Shown here: piece after piece, positions 1,294 through 37,556 of the stretch
How the letters are laid out: each line of letters starts with the position of its first letter
Position numbering within the stretch: position 1 is the stretch's first letter
Assembly (NCBI GenBank): GCA_043809315.1
Contig: JAZDDX010000027.1
Coordinates: 6,943 to 70,942, forward strand
Direction: 5' to 3'
Source of the DNA: Pseudomonadota bacterium
GTDB taxonomy: Bacteria > Bdellovibrionota_G > JALEGL01 > DATDPG01
Length of the DNA stretch: 64,000 nt
Notes under the pieces: model-generated
Seen by the model: the letters and a program-made list of their open reading frames with translations, nothing else
Told to the model about the DNA's origin: nothing
The model's database searches: none
Made by a program: the position numbers and the translations under genes

Positions 1294-4200
1294 TGGGATC
1301 CTCCCTTCGGCTGTTTCTCCTCCGCCGGAAGCTGGGGCGGGGGAGGGGCGGACGGTGTTGGGGCGGGACGGGGACGCTTCGGCATCGCCTGCAATTGTTT
1401 GATGTACATGAACACCTCGTGGTCGGGACGGATCTTCCCGCGCTCGACCGAGGCGAACTGACGGAAGTACTTGAGCGCGCTCTCGGCATCCTGCAACCGG
1501 TTCTGGTAGAGGAGCCCCATATTGAAGAGGGCGGCCGAATGGGTCGGGTCGGCATCCAGAATGGCCGCGAACGCCTGACGCGACTTCGCCACGTCGTTCG
1601 TCGCCTGATACGCCGTTCCGAGGTTCTCGATCGCCTGGAAATGAAGCGGATCAAAGTTCAAGACCTGTTGGTATCCGGCGATGGCCGCCGGATAGTTCGA
1701 GTACTTGAGGTACAGATTGGCGAGGTTGAGCCGGGGGTCGATCGCGTTCGGCGCCAGCTCGGAAGCTTTCTTGAACTCCGCGATCGCATTCTTCATCAGG
1801 TCCATCCCGATGTAAACGAGACCGAGGTTGTTGTACGTGTCGGCGGTCGCCGAGTTGATCTTCTTCCCTTTCTGAAGGGTCAGTTCCGCGAGATCGTACG
1901 CCTGGGTCTGATAGTAGATCAGGGCCAGATTGTTGATCGCCGAAATGCTCGTCTTGTCGACATTCAGAATTTCCCGGATCAGCGCGAGCGCCGATCCGTA
2001 GTCCTTCTTCCGCCGGTAGGCGATCGCGAGATCGTTCTTGAGCGCCAGGTTCGTTGGCTCCTTTGATAAGAGATCTCGGTAGATCGGGATGGCCCGGACG
2101 GCTTGTCCGGTCTCCGTAAGCGCGCGGGCAAGTTCCAAAAAGCCGACGTTCGTGCGCGATTGGACGAGAGAGGCGCTTTCAAACGAACTCGCCGCCTTAC
2201 CGAGGCGTCCCAACGTCCGGTAGGCGCGGCCGAGGGCCATGTACGCTCCGAAGTCCCTCGGGTCGGACTCGATCGCCAGGAGATTTTGGTCCATCTCACG
2301 GCGGAAGTCGGCCGGTGTGCGGCTCGAGGCTTGCCCCGCCGGGAGGGAGACGAACGGCTCACTGAGATGCATGGTGAGATCGACGTACCCCCGTCGCGGA
2401 GGATAGAGATCCGGTTTGAACTCGGTCAACGCCGCGTACGATTTAAGCGCCCACTCGTTGAAGACCTCCAGCTCGAACGCTTTCTTGATCGCCTTCTCGT
2501 AGGCCTCAACCGCTTTTTCCTCGATCGGGGCCGCCCGATTGGTGAGCTCTTGCTGATACATCTGCACCTCTTCGGGCGTGAGCTTCTTCGGGACCGGCGC
2601 GTTGAAGAGCGCCTGGCTGAACTCTTGGTAAATCACGCCGACGTGATGGAGGGCTGCCACCCCCATCTCCGGATCGCCGAAGTTGATGATGTCGAGGTAG
2701 CGGTCGCGCAGCTTCTTCAAGAGGAGCGCCTTCTGTTCGATCGCCCGAGTCAGGGCCGCCTGCGGCATTCGGAGACGGATCTCCCGGAAATCAGCCAACA
2801 TCGGTTTGGTCAGTTCGAGTGCAGCCTTCGCGGCATAGAGCCCAGCTCCCTTCACCTCGGGATCGGCCGCATACTGACGATGAACGTAGACGGCGCTCTG
2901 ATACGCTCGGGTCTCCCCCGCTTCGTCTTTCGTTTTTCCGAGCGCCTGTCCCAGCCGATAGTACGCTTCGATGACCCGTGCCCTCCGACTCGAATGCCGG
3001 CGCGGAAAATCCTTGAAGGCCGCGATGGCGTCGGTCCAGTGACGCTGTTTTTCATGGATGAGGGCGATCGAGAAGGCGATCTCCGCACTGTCTTTCGAGT
3101 TCGGATACCGTTTCAGGTGGGTCTCGTAACTCGCCAGGGCTCGCGGATACTCCCGAAGGTTCTCCTCGTACGTCCCCGCGTTGAAGAGCGCGTCCGCCGC
3201 GTATTTTCCCTTGGGGTCCTTCTCGGCGAGCAGTTCGTAATACTGGGCCGCATGGGCGTAATCGAGCTTGTCGTCGAAGTAGGTGGCCAGGGCCAGCGCC
3301 AGCTTGGAGACCATCTCGGAGTCCGGGTACTTGCGGAGGAACCGGTTCGACGTGCCCATCGCCTTTTCCGAGGCATCCGCGTTGATGTAATCGATGGCGG
3401 CGTTGAACAGCGCCTTGTCGGCGTACTTCGAATCGGGGTATTTTATCGCCAATTTTTCGAACATCTCGGCGGCCGCGACGTACTCTTTTTTATCCTCCGT
3501 CACCTTCGCCTTCTGGAAGATCGAACCCTGGATCAGCTCGAGCAGCTTCGCCCGGGTCTCGGCCGTCGCGTAGCTCTTGTCCGCGAGGAAGGTCTCTGCC
3601 CATTTTCCGAGGTTCTCCCAGTCCTTCCGGATGTTGTAGATGTCGAGGATCAGATCACGGGCCGTGTGGGAGGCCGGTGACTGCGGGTACTTTTTCACGA
3701 TGCCGAAGAATCCATCGCTCGCCCGCGAGAACTGATTGTAGTTATAAAGGAGCTGAGAACGCTGGAGCGCGATGTCGGGGACGCGAGGATCCTGGGGGAA
3801 CGAGCCGATGTAGGCCTCGTCAACTTCGATCAACCGCTGTGCGTAGACGGAGAGGAACAGCGGCTCGTAGTTGTCCTTTTGTTTGATCCCTTTGGTCTCG
3901 AGGTTCTTGTAATAAACCTTCTCGAGCTCGGTCAACGCGTCCATCTCACCGACGAGAGCTTCTTTGCGCCGTTTCCCGTTCTTGTCCGCCTTGGCGACAC
4001 GGTCGAACTCCGTGACCGCCTGGGCGTACATCTTGTTTTTGAAGAGCAGATCCGCATACAGGTAGCGGTTCTCGTAGGCGTTCTTGTGGTCGCCGAACCG
4101 ATCGAGGTATTTCCAGTAGTAGTTCAGCGCGGCACGTGTGTATCCCGCCGATTTCGCCGGATCGGTCTTCGCCGTCTGCTGCGAAAGCTCGTGATACTTC

Positions 4201-5399
4201 TTCGGGATGAACCGGGCGTAAACCTCCGATCGCTCGTAGGCGTACTCCCGCATCTCCGGATCGTTGGCCTGCCGGTACCAGATCGAGTTCTTGTCGTACA
4301 TGGAGATGAACTCCTCCATTTCCGACATCGCGTGCGTTAAGTCCTGGCTCTTGTCGTAGCAATCGACCAGCTTGGAATGGTATTTCGGCCGCTCCGCGCC
4401 GAACGGTTCGATCGCCATCAGCCGCCGGATGGTGGCGATCGCCTTGTCGTAGCGGGCCTGCTCGAAGTAGATGTTCGACAACTTCTGGAGGACCTTCTTC
4501 GCGTATTCCGGCTCGCCGATCGAAACGAAGTACTGCTGGGCTTCGTCGATCAGGCCGAGATCGGAATAAAAGATGACCAGATCCTTGAGAGCCTCATCCC
4601 GCAGCTCGAGTTCGCCACGGATCCCTTTAGAGCTCCGGACGACCTTCTGCATGACCTGGGTCGCCGGATTGATCTTCCCCTGGTTGTAGAAGCACCAGCT
4701 GAGCTTGTAGAGGGCGAAATTGTAGAGTTTGCTCGGTTCTTTGAGGACGATGTTGAAGGCGGCGATCGCCTCGTCGAAACGGCGGGCCATGAACTCGAGA
4801 TCGCCGATCTCCATATAGGAGTCGAGGCGAAATTTGCTCTTCGGGAACCTTGCGACCAGCTCCTTGAAGTACCCGAGGGCTTGGGAATCCCCGACCTCGG
4901 TGGCGTGGAACCCCGCCAGGAACATCACCTCGTCGAGCCGGTCGTAGGTCGAAGCGGTCTGAATGATCTGTTTGTACAGCGTGAAAGAAGCGGCGCCGGA
5001 GAACTGCGGCTCGACCGGCCTGACTTTCCGTTTTCCCTGGAACCACTCGTCGTACGCCTTGTTGTAAACTTCCATCTGCTGGAAATAGCGGGAACGGTTG
5101 TTCAGCCAGTACAACTCCGCGATCCGGAAGTACATGTCGGCCCGCCGATTGGGCTCGGTGGTCCTTTTCAAGAGCCGGGTCAGGATCGCGATCTCTTCCC
5201 GGATCTTCTGGGAGAGCGCTTGGTCGACCTGGTAGTCGGGAATCGAAAACGCCTCGAAGACCCCCGGTTTGAAGGAGCCGCGGCGGGGCTGCTCCTTCGG
5301 CGCGGCGGGGACTTTGGCCGGAGCCTCCGCTCCGCCGGCGGGGATCGCCAGGCTTAGCGTCAGGAGAAAACTCGTGAGCGCGATCCGCCTCGCGGTCAC
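1290..5399 (-). CDS. Very large secreted multi-TPR repeat protein (1369 aa), GltD/NfsD(AgmU)-like scaffold.
   Basis: The N-terminal signal peptide is MTARRIALTSFLLTLSLAIPAGGAEA. Tetratricopeptide-like repeats recur along the whole length (Y/F/A/L periodicity, many AxxxY/AxxxF motifs). It overlaps both neighbours by 4 nt. Confidence 0.85.
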   Translation of the reverse strand: MTARRIALTSFLLTLSLAIPAGGAEAPAKVPAAPKEQPRRGSFKPGVFEAFSIPDYQVDQALSQKIREEIAILTRLLKRTTEPNRRADMYFRIAELYWLNNRSRYFQQMEVYNKAYDEWFQGKRKVRPVEPQFSGAASFTLYKQIIQTASTYDRLDEVMFLAGFHATEVGDSQALGYFKELVARFPKSKFRLDSYMEIGDLEFMARRFDEAIAAFNIVLKEPSKLYNFALYKLSWCFYNQGKINPATQVMQKVVRSSKGIRGELELRDEALKDLVIFYSDLGLIDEAQQYFVSIGEPEYAKKVLQKLSNIYFEQARYDKAIATIRRLMAIEPFGAERPKYHSKLVDCYDKSQDLTHAMSEMEEFISMYDKNSIWYRQANDPEMREYAYERSEVYARFIPKKYHELSQQTAKTDPAKSAGYTRAALNYYWKYLDRFGDHKNAYENRYLYADLLFKNKMYAQAVTEFDRVAKADKNGKRRKEALVGEMDALTELEKVYYKNLETKGIKQKDNYEPLFLSVYAQRLIEVDEAYIGSFPQDPRVPDIALQRSQLLYNYNQFSRASDGFFGIVKKYPQSPASHTARDLILDIYNIRKDWENLGKWAETFLADKSYATAETRAKLLELIQGSIFQKAKVTEDKKEYVAAAEMFEKLAIKYPDSKYADKALFNAAIDYINADASEKAMGTSNRFLRKYPDSEMVSKLALALATYFDDKLDYAHAAQYYELLAEKDPKGKYAADALFNAGTYEENLREYPRALASYETHLKRYPNSKDSAEIAFSIALIHEKQRHWTDAIAAFKDFPRRHSSRRARVIEAYYRLGQALGKTKDEAGETRAYQSAVYVHRQYAADPEVKGAGLYAAKAALELTKPMLADFREIRLRMPQAALTRAIEQKALLLKKLRDRYLDIINFGDPEMGVAALHHVGVIYQEFSQALFNAPVPKKLTPEEVQMYQQELTNRAAPIEEKAVEAYEKAIKKAFELEVFNEWALKSYAALTEFKPDLYPPRRGYVDLTMHLSEPFVSLPAGQASSRTPADFRREMDQNLLAIESDPRDFGAYMALGRAYRTLGRLGKAASSFESASLVQSRTNVGFLELARALTETGQAVRAIPIYRDLLSKEPTNLALKNDLAIAYRRKKDYGSALALIREILNVDKTSISAINNLALIYYQTQAYDLAELTLQKGKKINSATADTYNNLGLVYIGMDLMKNAIAEFKKASELAPNAIDPRLNLANLYLKYSNYPAAIAGYQQVLNFDPLHFQAIENLGTAYQATNDVAKSRQAFAAILDADPTHSAALFNMGLLYQNRLQDAESALKYFRQFASVERGKIRPDHEVFMYIKQLQAMPKRPRPAPTPSAPPPPQLPAEEKQPKGGSQ

Positions 5400-7875: not shown

Positions 7876-8868
7876 GTGTTGCGTACGAAAAAGGGGATCT
7901 CCCGGCATCACCATTCGATGGTGCGACACCTGGAAGCCGCACTCCGAGAGGATGCGGGATGGAAGCACGTTCAGCGTGTGCTCGTGGGGGTTTCGGGCGG
8001 CGTCGATTCTGCTGTGTTGCTCCATCTATTGTGCGCGCACCGAGAAAAAGGGGGGCCGGAGGTGGTCGCCGCGCACGTGCATCACGGTCTTCGGGGCGCC
8101 GAAGCGGATCGGGATGCGGAGATGGCGGAGAGAGTCGCGCGTGCGCACGGCTGCGACTTTCACGTTTCTCGTGTGGCCGGGAAGAAGCTCAAGACGAAGG
8201 CGGAGCATGCACTGCGGGCAGCTCGACTGGAGGCTTTGGAGCGAGTGGCGGTGTCTGTAGGCGCCGGCCGGATCGCGCTGGCCCACCACTTGGACGATCA
8301 GGCGGAGACCGTGCTGTTTCGTCTCCTCGGAGGGGCCGACCTGCGGGGTCTCGGCGGGATCCGCCCGTTCCGTCCGCCTCACTGGATCCGCCCGCTCTTG
8401 AATTTTTCCCGGGAGGAAATTGCGAAAGAGGCGAAGCTCTGTCGCCTGCCGTATGCCGTCGACTCGAGCAACCGGGAAACGCATTATCGTCGGAATTATC
8501 TCCGCCGGGTGGCGATTCCCATGTTGGAGAAAGAGTTCAATCCGCAACTTTCGCGCCATCTGGTCGCGCTGGCAGAGTCGATGCGGGAGACGAACGAGTT
8601 CCTGGATCGCCTTGCAGAGGAACTTCTCGATCGCGCGCGAATCGGCAAGGGGTACCGTTCCGATCTCTTGACGGAAGCCCCGGCGCCGGTGCGCCAGCGG
8701 GCGATTCAGATCGCGTTCAGCGAAAAAGCGGGGGAGGGCTCGGCCCTGCGTCGACCCCAGCTGGTAGCGATCGAGCGGCTCGTTTGTTCGACAGGTCGCC
8801 TTCGGACCTTTGCCCTGCCGCGGAATGTCCTCGCGGTCCGGGCGAAAAACCGGATCGAGTTCCGTTGA
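7876..8868 (+). CDS. tilS: tRNA(Ile)-lysidine synthetase.
   Basis: PP-loop SGGVDS motif (VLVGVSGGVDSAVLLHLL) and overall TilS architecture. It sits upstream of ftsH, as in many bacteria. Confidence 0.85.
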   Translation: MLRTKKGISRHHHSMVRHLEAALREDAGWKHVQRVLVGVSGGVDSAVLLHLLCAHREKGGPEVVAAHVHHGLRGAEADRDAEMAERVARAHGCDFHVSRVAGKKLKTKAEHALRAARLEALERVAVSVGAGRIALAHHLDDQAETVLFRLLGGADLRGLGGIRPFRPPHWIRPLLNFSREEIAKEAKLCRLPYAVDSSNRETHYRRNYLRRVAIPMLEKEFNPQLSRHLVALAESMRETNEFLDRLAEELLDRARIGKGYRSDLLTEAPAPVRQRAIQIAFSEKAGEGSALRRPQLVAIERLVCSTGRLRTFALPRNVLAVRAKNRIEFR

Positions 8869-35035: not shown

Positions 35036-35146
35036 ATGGGAAAGAAAGACAATCGGCGGAGCCGTAAAGTCAAACAAAGACGTAGACAGAAGAAGCTGAA
35101 GGCACGCATTCATCGCAAAAAAGAGATCGCCCGCAAGCGCAAGTGA
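35036..35146 (+). CDS. Unannotated 36-aa highly basic small protein (MGKKDNRRSRKVKQRRRQKKLKARIHRKKEIARKRK). The N-terminus resembles ribosomal protein bTHX.
   Basis: Strong SD AGGAGG 6-7 nt upstream and a start 13 nt after the previous stop. The TGA overlaps the GTG start of the downstream hydrolase gene (GTGA). Below the ORF-track size cutoff. Confidence 0.4.
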   Translation: MGKKDNRRSRKVKQRRRQKKLKARIHRKKEIARKRK

Positions 35147-35757
35147 TCCTTCCGTCCGCCGGCGCGGAGCTGGAGGCGGAGGTTTCCGCACCGAAGAAGA
35201 ATTCCGCACCGTTTCTGGTGTTGGCGCACCCTCACCCACAAATGGGGGGGGACATGCACAACAAGGTGATCGATACGCTCTTTACGCGCGCGATCGAAAA
35301 AGGGTGGGGGGCGCTCCGTTTTAATTTCCGCGGTGTCGGAGCGAGTTCGGGAACCTTCGACAACGGTGCCGGAGAAACCGACGACGTTCTGTCCGCGCTC
35401 TTATTCGCCTCGAAGTTCGCGGAACGACCGTACCGAACGCTCACGCTCGCAGGGTATTCGTTCGGTTCCTGGATGGCGGCGAAGGCCGCCGCGACGCTAC
35501 CTGAACTCGGGAAACTGGTTCTGATCGCGCCACCCCTCCGGGGGATGGATTTCTCGCCCCTGCAAACGGTTCGGCACCCCAAGTACGTTTTTGCTGCGGG
35601 AAAAGACGAATTTGTTTCGGTCGCCGAGCTCGAGGCTTGGTTCGCGCAATTGACCCCTCCCAAGTCGTTGCATCTGCTGGAAGAGGCGGATCACCAGTTC
35701 ATCGGGTGCACGTCGCGGTTGATTCGGGACGTTCTTCGGGTCGTCGACGCGAGCTAA
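35143..35757 (+). CDS. Alpha/beta hydrolase fold protein.
   Basis: HPHPQMGG oxyanion-like region, GYSFGSW nucleophile elbow (GxSxG), and a C-terminal His. Confidence 0.65.
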   Translation: MILPSAGAELEAEVSAPKKNSAPFLVLAHPHPQMGGDMHNKVIDTLFTRAIEKGWGALRFNFRGVGASSGTFDNGAGETDDVLSALLFASKFAERPYRTLTLAGYSFGSWMAAKAAATLPELGKLVLIAPPLRGMDFSPLQTVRHPKYVFAAGKDEFVSVAELEAWFAQLTPPKSLHLLEEADHQFIGCTSRLIRDVLRVVDAS

Positions 35758-35777
35758 AGAAAAACCCACGAGGCGGG

Positions 35778-35817
35778 GGCGGAGGGAGTCCGTGTGGTGT
35801 TCCCCTCTCGAGTTTTT
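35778..35817 (+). terminator. Possible intrinsic terminator: GC-rich imperfect hairpin followed by a TTTTT tract.
   Basis: GGAGGGAG...TCCCCTCTC followed by GAGTTTTTC, about 25 nt after the hydrolase stop. The stem is imperfect. Confidence 0.3.
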
Positions 35818-36987
35818 CAGGCGGGGGATTAAGGTCAGCCTCGTCGCCGCGGCCTCCTCCCGGCTCTCCTGCGGTTGGCGTGGATTTCAGCGTATTGTCC
35901 GCCCGCGCCGCCTATCGCCTTATTCCCTTCGGCGATCCCTCTTCGTCCTTTAAGATCGGACCTTGAGGTCTTCGGAGGGCGGGGCGCTTCGGTTCAACCC
36001 GAAACGATCCGCTCAGATCCTTCGTCTCCGCTTCAGAGCCTGTCTCCCTTACCTGGAGCCCACCGTTGCCGGCGGGATCCTCGTTTGAGGTTCATGGCCC
36101 CTTCGACATTTTCCGAATTCCCGCGGGTCCTTGACCCGTAATCCATCCGGCGGGCCCGGGGGGGGTAGATCCACCTCGGGAACCAGCGGGAATCCTTAAG
36201 AGGTATCTTTCAACCTCCGATGTCCTGGGGTGCCTTCCCCTTCGAAGCTTTCCGCCCGCGCGTCGATCCGGGTTCCCTTACGGGCTCCCGCTCCTCCCGT
36301 ACCGTTTGTCTCCGACGAACCGTCGAGTGGTTCGTCGGCTTGAAGTCCGGTTTCGGAGGGTTCATCCCGCCGCCGAGCCGGCGCGGTTGAAGGGGAATTA
36401 TTCCTTTCAACCCACCCGAGCTCCCTTGGGGTTTCGGGTCTCTCGGGTTCTCTCTCCGTCATCGCCGATCGGGTTTCACCCCGATCTGCCTCTCCTGCCG
36501 TTGCACCTCGCCCCCTCTTCGCAGAGGTTCGATCGAGAGTGCCGGCTTCAAAGGTTTGAGCCGCTGACGGTTTGGCGTTTCACTCAACCGAGTGCGCCGA
36601 CCCGTTGGACCTTTTTCACCAATCTCTTGGTGCCACATCGGACGGCCCCCGTCCGTGGGTTCGCGCTATGTAGCGAGCGTTTCTTCCAGGGTCAACGAAA
36701 GAGATGAAAAAAATTGAACGAACGAGATTCGTGCACGAATCTTCTTCGTGCATCATCGACAAGTGTGCTTCGTAATCGACGCGAAGCCCGGAGCGATACG
36801 ATTGGATACGGCTTTCCGAGCGATGATGGATTGAGAACACATGCCCGTTGGACGATCCTCGAATGTCGAGCGCGCGATTGTTAAGCCGGGGTCTTGCGAA
36901 AGATCGCTTGTCAGAGCCCCGAGTGGAGTGGAGTTGCGAGCGAAAATCAATTTGAACTGCGGAGTCTCCGTGGGAATTCGGAAGTCG

Positions 36988-37016
36988 TTGCTGTTGCTAG
37001 GTCGTTGCGATATATA
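36988..37016 (+). promoter_or_regulatory. Candidate sigma70-type promoter for tRNA-Val (TTGCTG, 17 nt spacer, TATATA).
   Basis: -35 TTGCTG at ~36988, 17-nt spacer, -10 TATATA at ~37011, about 10 nt upstream of the mature tRNA 5' end. Confidence 0.4.
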
Positions 37017-37026
37017 CGCGCGCCAT

Positions 37027-37101
37027 GGGCGATTAACTCAGCGGGAGAGTGCCATCCTCACACGGTGGAAGTCACTGGTTCGAATCCAGTATCGCCCACC
37101 A
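37027..37101 (+). tRNA. tRNA-Val (anticodon CAC), 75 nt including the encoded CCA.
   Basis: Manual fold. Acceptor GGGCGAT/ATCGCCC, U8, D-stem ACTC/GAGT, anticodon stem CCATC/GGTGG, loop CTCACAC (U33, CAC, A37), T-stem ACTGG/CCAGT, T-loop TTCGAAT, discriminator A, CCA. Confidence 0.85.
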
Positions 37102-37104
37102 ACT

Positions 37105-37518
37105 TCACTCCCCCATCACCTTGACGATCACCCGTTTTTTCCGCTGCCCGTCAAATTCCGCGTAATAGACCTGCTGCCAGGGGCCGAGGTCGAGTCTCCC
37201 CTTCGTGATCGGGACGATCACTTCGTGGCCGATCAAGAGGCTCTTCAAATGACTGTCGCCGTTCGATTCGCCGGTCCGGTGGTGGCGGTACCCCTCCCTG
37301 AAAGGGGCGAGTTTCTCCGCCCATTCGTCGATATCGGCGATCAGGCCGTCTTCGGCGTCGTTCACGTAAACCCCGGCGGTGATGTGCATCGCCGAGACGA
37401 GAACCATCCCCTCCTGGACCTTGGACTTCCGGACTGCCTCCTCCACGTCGTCCGTGATCCGGACGTACTCGCGGTGTTTTTCGGTGTTGAACGTCAGGTA
37501 CTCCGTATGAGATTTCAT
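37105..37518 (-). CDS. yjbQ: YjbQ family protein (secondary thiamine-phosphate synthase, UPF0047).
   Basis: Full-length similarity to YjbQ (ITDDVEEAV...[20 protein letters not shown]...GHEVIVPI). The stop lies 3 nt after the tRNA. Confidence 0.8.
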
Positions 37519-37556
37519 GGTCCCCCCTTTTAAGATAGGTTGGCTCCGGCGACAAC

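Follow-up and report, generated by a model that had tools for sequence, protein, structure and literature searches.

The window analyzed here, a 64,000-nucleotide (nt) stretch of contig JAZDDX010000027.1 from a bacterium placed in the Bdellovibrionota_G, carries between an alpha/beta-hydrolase gene and a tRNA-Val gene a conserved element of ~905 nt that is probably a stand-alone gene for a large structured non-coding RNA (ncRNA). The genes around it are chromosomal housekeeping genes encoding RNase G, an acylphosphatase, an outer membrane protein (OMP), a HisPhos protein, the hydrolase, YjbQ, UvrC and ComEC, and ARAGORN detects a single tRNA gene at the locus. The intergenic region and its borders comprise the following features:

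ending at 35757: alpha/beta-hydrolase open reading frame (ORF), convergent with the element if the latter is read from the minus strand

35758–36660, minus strand: putative conserved structured RNA gene with a predicted transcript of ~905 nt, based on nhmmer/alignment, consensus folding, covariation and the strand evidence

36698–37026, no strand: non-conserved spacer of ~330 nt, holding the palindrome GATTCGTGCACGAATC and a −10-like TATATA ~10 nt before the tRNA

37027–37101, plus strand: tRNA-Val (CAC), called by ARAGORN and Rfam, a conserved and presumably divergent neighbor

Between the hydrolase stop codon and tRNA-Val, stop codons occur in all six frames and no ORF exceeds 133 amino acids (aa), in line with the short overlapping ORFs that the first-pass annotation of this DNA had described. 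The coordinates it gave for the longest non-coding stretch of the window, 35758–37026, were likewise right: positions 35758–36840 (1083 nt) form the longest stretch without an ORF of at least 134 aa, the next largest measuring 479–629 nt. The right edge at 36840 is set solely by a spurious ORF that overlaps the tRNA. This 230-aa frame (36841–37533, plus strand) crosses tRNA-Val, runs antisense to the YjbQ gene (37105–37518, minus strand) and is almost certainly not real; it hides the right end of the non-coding region on simple ORF maps. The two hairpins quoted in the first-pass annotation do exist, GGTTGAAGGGGAATTATTCCTTTCAACC at 36385–36412 and the 16-nt palindrome at 36726–36741.

Related contigs were collected via the neighboring proteins, with UvrC and HisPhos as anchors. 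The nearest relatives of the window UvrC share 60–72 % identity and stem from uncultured Bdellovibrionota-type metagenome-assembled genomes. Nhmmer and alignment revealed full-length homologues of the element (~35758–36660 in the window) at the same locus in contigs L029 (4336–5285) and L042 (7821–8790). Window and L029 can be aligned from ~35753 to ~36705 with 56 % identity over 952 and 949 nt, highly conserved blocks being interspersed with variable ones, and the L042 copy, which is of similar length, is recovered by nhmmer over its full extent (E = 1e-88). In L029 (UvrC 63 % identical, GC content 43 %), the gene order is RNase G, acylphosphatase, OMP, HisPhos, a gene-poor gap, tRNA-Val, YjbQ and UvrC; in the HisPhos-anchored contigs L042, L043 and L044, HisPhos is followed by the gap and then tRNA-Val. 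Contig L040 ends 190 nt into the gap directly after the hydrolase gene and carries only the hydrolase-side end of the element. The sample thus consists of three independent full-length lineages (window, L029 and L042/L043/L044) and one fragment (L040). The genomes of the element-bearing relatives encode a UvrC ~63 % identical to that of the window and span 43–58 % GC. The locus order shared with L029 and L042/L043/L044 reads OMP, HisPhos, a 36-aa ORF, in some cases the hydrolase, the element, the ~330-nt spacer and tRNA-Val. Upstream of the element lies the hydrolase gene in the window and L040, and in L029 and L042 the 36-aa ORF with small unannotated ORF calls after it. The length of the spacer is kept though its sequence is not (~330 nt in the window, 340–350 nt in L029 and L042), and tRNA-Val(CAC) lies ~330–365 nt from the element in all three lineages. 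A divergence of this extent (UvrC 63 % identical, GC content 17 points apart) would leave neutral DNA unalignable; hence, the fact that the element can still be aligned argues for its conservation, which the first-pass annotation had named as a check on its proposal.

The element family is rare, with three full-length lineages and one fragment. Among the UvrC-anchored contigs, L029 alone is syntenic, and L025, L026–L028, L032, L033 and L034 lack the element. A scan of genome contigs with UvrC returned only relatives of at most 41 % identity without synteny, and a metagenome scan with a motif from the 5′ region yielded one contig that is identical to L029 and no further lineage. In IMG/VR, one motif gave four matches that nhmmer attributed to chance and three other motifs gave none, while BLAST searches of plasmid and phage (INPHARED) collections produced no match to the element. 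Neither the window nor any element locus examined contains more than one copy.

Evidence for a conserved fold comes from single sequences as well as from the alignment. Against dinucleotide shuffles, the minimum free energies (MFEs) of the three homologues reach z = −6.9, −6.7 and −5.4 on the minus strand and −5.6, −4.8 and −2.9 on the plus strand (window −6.9 and −5.6), which bears out the first-pass impression of a hairpin-rich region. RNAalifold assigns the three lineages a minus-strand consensus of −249 kcal/mol, compared with −106 ± 6 kcal/mol after shuffling of alignment columns within conservation classes (z = −24), with 86 compensatory pairs versus 44 ± 6 in the shuffled controls. In a four-row alignment (A6), 94.5 % of the cells are paired, and 85 pairs are changed on both sides and still paired, versus 34.4 ± 4.1 after shuffling of partners (none of 500 shuffles reached 85) and 11–22 when the partners were slid by 1–3 columns. 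At least two such double-change pairs are found in 22 of the 41 helices. Compensatory changes above controls are what a structured ncRNA should display and, by these models, the element has a conserved secondary structure. The consensus model consists of ~40 helices in five multi-helix domains that are closed by a terminal helix:

36654–36660, minus strand: 5′ strand of the terminal helix (helix 1, RNA 5′-ACCCACG), predicted to pair with 35764–35770

35764–35770, minus strand: 3′ strand of the terminal helix (RNA CGUGGGU-3′), predicted to pair with 36654–36660

36438–36610, minus strand: predicted multi-helix domain A (helices 4–13), with five, five and three double-change pairs in helices 8, 11 and 13

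36375–36423, minus strand: predicted domain B, a long hairpin that contains the hairpin 36385–36412; seven of the eight pairs of helix 16 are double-changed

36261–36372, minus strand: predicted domain C, with four and six double-change pairs in helices 20 and 21

36313–36337, minus strand: predicted hairpin of domain C with the invariant loop ACUCGACGG (36320–36328)

36271–36288, minus strand: predicted GNRA hairpin of domain C, loop GUAA/GUAA/GAAA

36088–36240, minus strand: predicted domain D, with an insert region of variable length (36120–36190) and the conserved loop GGAUGGA

35831–36082, minus strand: predicted domain E, with a long interrupted helix (35871–36031) and nine double-change pairs in helix 33

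35836–35855, minus strand: predicted GNRA hairpin of domain E, loop GCGA/GUGA/GCGA, with a G·U pair that is invariant in four lineages

The terminal helix itself covaries, with C–G replaced by U–A in L029 and L042 and by G–C in L042. Invariant A-rich loops include ACUCGACGG, GAGAGA, CGAAGGG, GAUGGA and CUCUGAA. The MAFFT alignment is uncertain within the variable part of domain D, and the 3′ domain, when folded alone with L040, lacks its pairing partners, which lie beyond the fragment. The large structured ncRNA suggested by the first-pass annotation hence holds as a conserved, highly structured and non-coding element, but it extends over only ~905 nt (35758–36660) rather than the entire 1.27 kb. 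Similarly, of the two hairpins that had been offered as signs of structure, the one at 36385–36412 is recovered as the strongly covarying helix 16, whereas the 16-nt palindrome falls into the non-conserved spacer. Three further structural candidates were dropped: UUCG tetraloops, as the many plus-strand CTTCGG motifs are not stem-closed; a long-range pairing of GUGUGG in the 5′ region (plus sense) with CCACA in the 3′ region, which L042 does not support (GCACGC versus GUCACAC); and a tRNA-like piece, a direct repeat (D1, 36535–36559 versus 37045–37069 in the tRNA, 72 % identity) that corresponds to an ordinary helix in the homologues. L042 and L044 differ at two positions only over 1.55 kb (L042 7853 and 8028), both of which are unpaired in the consensus model.

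A comparison with known RNA families yielded no assignment. Rfam contains models for GOLLD, ROOL (~580 nt), OLE, raiA and HEARO. A cmscan search of the whole window on both strands with all 4227 families of Rfam 15 returned tRNA alone at gathering score, and at E ≤ 10 there was only noise (at most 19.9 bits for window positions 35500–37300, tRNA aside, 20.2 bits for L029 and 9.8 bits for L042). Accordingly, none of the three homologues matches the GOLLD, ROOL, OLE, raiA or HEARO covariance models at E ≤ 10, nor those for ribosomal RNA (rRNA), group I or group II introns. RNase P RNA and transfer-messenger RNA (tmRNA), whose signatures the first-pass annotation had looked for in vain, gave no match in Rfam or ARAGORN either, tRNA being the only hit.

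The closest parallels are nevertheless instructive. GOLLD, which often exceeds 800 nt, is a large multi-domain ornate RNA frequently encoded beside tRNA genes, and both GOLLD and ROOL are phage- or prophage-encoded, typically in or near tRNA islands (PMC12286853). The element resembles GOLLD in being very large, multi-domain, ornate and tRNA-proximal, but differs by its housekeeping neighbors, the single tRNA, the lack of a match in the phage and IMG/VR searches and its hosts among relatives of the Bdellovibrionota. It does adjoin a tRNA gene, albeit in divergent orientation if it is encoded on the minus strand. Of the GOLLD/ROOL-like nature put forward in the first-pass annotation, size, complexity and proximity to a tRNA consequently stand, whereas an Rfam match and phage genes are missing. 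Neither ROOL nor the element has a known protein partner. The assemblies that ROOL forms consist of RNA only (PMC12286853) and may serve as one model for how the element could work, although ROOL is phage- or prophage-encoded and the element lacks a match to its model. OLE, in turn, forms a functional ribonucleoprotein together with small basic partners, bS21 among them (PMC12054373, PMC9723947). Both OLE and, as predicted, the element are stand-alone, highly conserved large ncRNAs with A-rich loops, and the 36-aa ORF near the element is basic. OLE, however, is ~600 nt long, belongs to the Bacillota and sits in an operon with oapA and other genes, and its Rfam model does not detect the element. 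With RNase P RNA, rRNA domains and ORF-less group II introns, the model has in common paired ends, domains that radiate from a central junction, GNRA loops and A-rich joining regions, and its size falls within the range of ORF-less group II introns. In contrast to such introns, the element is present as a single copy at a fixed intergenic site and has a promoter-like start instead of an exon context. A domain-V-like hairpin of the right geometry is not visible in its sequence; the GNRA hairpin 35836–35855 comprises only seven base pairs (bp) with a 1×1 internal loop and does not have domain V geometry. Full-text searches of a paper library did not retrieve any account of an RNA of this kind among relatives of Bdellovibrio. 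Taken together, the element fails every family test that was run and belongs to no known family. A replication origin was also considered and rejected, as there is no cluster of DnaA boxes, no skew switch and no dnaA context.

Since covariation of Watson–Crick pairs is strand-symmetric, the coding strand has to be deduced from other evidence. In the three homologues, folding of the minus strand reaches MFEs that are 2, 18 and 43 kcal/mol below those of the plus strand, with a better z-score in each case, and the consensus energy is lower by 30 kcal/mol (z = −24 versus −14 on the plus strand). A-rich unpaired residues are a usual mark of functional RNAs. Read in minus sense, the unpaired residues of the element contain 36–45 % A and 13–20 % U; in plus sense, the same loops would be rich in U. 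In addition, two minus-sense tetraloops change within the GNRA consensus only (GUAA/GUAA/GAAA and GCGA/GUGA/GCGA). Finally, when the structure was derived in a strand-neutral manner with G·U pairs forbidden, minus-sense G·U cells outnumbered A·C cells (40 versus 26), the reverse of what loop composition predicts. Provided that the element is an RNA, these models and sequence features make it quite likely that the minus strand encodes it. The same strand offers candidate transcription signals at both ends:

36690–36695, minus strand: −35-like hexamer TTGACC, within the plus-strand block GGTCAAC (36690–36696) that is invariant in three lineages

36667–36672, minus strand: −10-like hexamer TACATA, read from the sequence, corresponding to TAGAAA in L029 and TAGAAC in L042

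35755–35777, minus strand: terminator-like end, CCCGCCUCGUGGG followed by UUUUUCUUU, adjoining the stop codon of the convergent hydrolase gene

GGTCAAC is the last conserved block in the alignments (A5, A7), and all three lineages share the arrangement of GTTGACC, exactly 17 nt, TA(C/G)A(T/A)(A/C) and 6–7 nt before the first base of the terminal helix. From this TTGACC-N17-TAnAnn geometry, we infer a sigma-70-type promoter with an RNA start around 36660. At the opposite end, a generic terminator scan reported one minus-strand terminator-like site (35777–35765), and a U-run comes after the 3′ strand of this helix in the window, similarly in L040 and more weakly in L029. The predicted transcript ends are uncertain by ~10 nt.

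The foremost alternative, which we consider unlikely, is that the same structured RNA is made from the plus strand, either as a 3′ extension of the hydrolase or HisPhos transcript or as a giant 5′ leader of tRNA-Val. Besides the strand symmetry of the covariation, the plus strand, too, beats the controls (consensus z = −13.8, 88 compensatory pairs versus 43 ± 5, and the single-sequence z-scores of −5.6, −4.8 and −2.9), hairpin 35783–35795 uses plus-strand G·U pairs in L029 and L040, and the orientation would agree with that of the tRNA and the upstream genes. Yet, plus-strand folding is consistently the weaker one, its loops are U-rich and A-poor with tetraloops UUAC/UUUC and UCGC/UCAC instead of GNRA, and the balance of G·U to A·C favors the minus strand. 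The element begins 1–7 nt past the hydrolase stop codon, which leaves no room for a plus-strand promoter in the window. A leader function is opposed by the 330-nt stretch between element and tRNA, which is not conserved, and by the −10-like box of the tRNA itself, while a role as 3′ untranslated region is opposed by the upstream gene, which differs among the lineages (hydrolase versus 36-aa ORF). The tRNA-linked RNA evoked in the first-pass annotation is thus disfavored as a leader or co-transcript, the element lying most likely on the minus strand and divergent from tRNA-Val.

Far less probable is a function at the DNA level, as a mobile relic with terminal inverted repeats (ACCCACGG...CCGTGGGT) or as protein-binding or structural DNA at a tRNA integration hot spot. 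Both ends are indeed inverted repeats, and the 1.27-kb block is either there or missing as a whole: tRNA-Val of L034 comes directly after the hydrolase gene, with no large element in between. In the same contig, the 3′ end of tRNA-Val (AAATCCAGTATCGCCCACCA) recurs ~200 nt past the gene (3569–3591 and 3770–3791). This duplication resembles an att-type scar and suggests that, in the clade, tRNA-Val serves as an integration site. However, the element occurs in single copy, occupies one and the same chromosomal position in the three diverged lineages, is accompanied by neither a transposase nor an integrase, lacks protein similarity and does not occur in the phage, plasmid or IMG/VR collections. 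Unlike DNA-binding sites or terminal inverted repeats, it also displays compensatory changes over ~40 internal helices distributed along its full extent, and its composition is strand-asymmetric, with 58 % pyrimidine on the plus strand in the GC-rich and the AT-rich homologue alike.

A decayed pseudogene or an unrecognized minus-strand protein gene, for which one could invoke the purine-rich composition of that strand, the AT and GC skew over 35700–36750, which resembles that of minus-strand genes, and the ORFs that gene callers placed on the element in L042 and L044 together with a 90-aa ORF in L029, is effectively refuted, because mismatches between the window and L029 lack 3-nt periodicity, the lengths of 13 of the 17 indels are not divisible by three, stops occur in six frames, the ORF calls disagree between homologues in strand and extent (a single L042/L044 substitution creates a stop that truncates the 251-aa call in L044), and a pseudogene would not remain alignable at such divergence. 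Pfam yields no match to the element, and its concatenated six-frame translation (35750–37026) retrieves nothing at E ≤ 1e-3 among 5.8 billion proteins; this protein similarity check, which the first-pass annotation had regarded as potentially decisive against it, thus turned out in favor of an RNA. With neither codon periodicity nor protein homologues, and with indels that break the frame, the element is non-coding and not a degraded gene.

We therefore return to positions 35758–36660 as a probable stand-alone minus-strand gene for an ncRNA of ~905 nt with its own promoter and a function in trans. Transcription would initiate at the putative sigma-70-type promoter (TTGACC at 36695–36690, a 17-nt spacer and TACATA at 36672–36667) and start near 36660, i.e. 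at the first base of the terminal helix that would join the 5′ ACCCACG to the 3′ CGUGGGU (35770–35764), and would end in the U-rich tract against the hydrolase stop codon. The transcript would then fold into ~40 helices in five domains with GNRA tetraloops and A-rich invariant joining regions and loops. It is probably neither a leader nor a riboswitch or tRNA precursor, because no gene follows in minus orientation and the next feature is the 3′ end of a convergent gene. tRNA-Val, with its own −10-like box ~10 nt upstream, is divergent and lies ~365 nt from the predicted element start. GNRA loops are typical tertiary-contact elements. The paired ends of the model, together with its GNRA loops and invariant A-rich loops, suggest that the RNA is stable and compact and would act in trans. 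Conceivably, it does so as a ribonucleoprotein scaffold or as an RNA-only assembly, and a scaffold role is our best guess by analogy with OLE, ROOL and GOLLD (PMC12286853, PMC12054373). The self-complementary UCGA within the invariant loop ACUCGACGG could mediate a kissing-loop dimer.

Several observations speak against this interpretation or limit its support. Three independent lineages are too few for per-pair covariation statistics of the R-scape type, and the consensus structure was derived from the same alignment that was used to score it. At the same site in L034 and L039, the element is missing, which means that it is not universally required even within the clade. As for strand and transcript ends, the U-rich 3′ tail is absent in L042, a generic sigma-70 scan did not call the TACATA box, whose sequence lacks the canonical final T, hairpin 35783–35795 stays paired in L029 and L040 through G·U on the plus strand where a minus-strand RNA would have A·C mismatches, and an early G·U test with two sequences was neutral (17 versus 20).

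Some additional features of the locus deserve mention. The palindrome GATTCGTGCACGAATC is situated ~66–81 nt upstream of the predicted minus-strand start, and L042 has, in a corresponding place (~8800–8830), an inverted repeat of another sequence (GTCTCG...CGAGAC). Each could be a regulator site, specific to its lineage, that serves the divergent promoters of the RNA and the tRNA. Just past the 3′ end of the RNA element, L029 contains a perfect 21-bp inverted repeat (GCGGCATGAAAAAATGTTGTG / CACAACATTTTTTCATGCCGC) around ~80 nt (4208–4330), which might act as a terminator in both directions or represent a small repeat element that has inserted there. An unannotated micro-ORF of the window (35036–35146, plus strand), located between the genes for HisPhos and the hydrolase, encodes the extremely basic 36-aa peptide MGKKDNRRSRKVKQRRRQKKLKARIHRKKEIARKRK. 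This Lys/Arg-rich ORF, located 0.1–0.7 kb from the RNA element, is found with 69–83 % identity in L029, L034, L039, L040 and L042–L045 and has no relative in Pfam, NCBIfam or PDB. That the peptide is an RNA-binding partner of the element is only a guess, because the micro-ORF also occurs at the element-less loci L034 and L039.

Densely structured bacterial ncRNAs of more than ~500 nt are very rare. The known large structured bacterial RNAs are ribozymes or cores of ribonucleoproteins, i.e. the rRNAs, RNase P, tmRNA and group I and II introns. OLE, GOLLD and ROOL were long-standing puzzles and have recently been found to form striking RNA assemblies (PMC12286853). On balance, we favor the view, if by a modest degree, that the element is the founding member of an undescribed class of giant ncRNA (~905 nt, ~40 helices) that is chromosomally encoded in an uncultured clade related to the Bdellovibrionota, has its own promoter and plays an elaborate biochemical role, be it that of a ribozyme, of a ribonucleoprotein core or of an RNA architecture that assembles itself. 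If so, it would be one of the largest bacterial ncRNAs outside the ribosome, exceeding OLE and ROOL and at least equaling GOLLD in size. With three homologues spanning 43–60 % GC, it would offer a defined target for structural biology, and the proposed strand, ends and domain model are directly testable. It would also add a new and unrelated class of ~905-nt RNAs from a lineage that is related to predatory bacteria and has been little studied.

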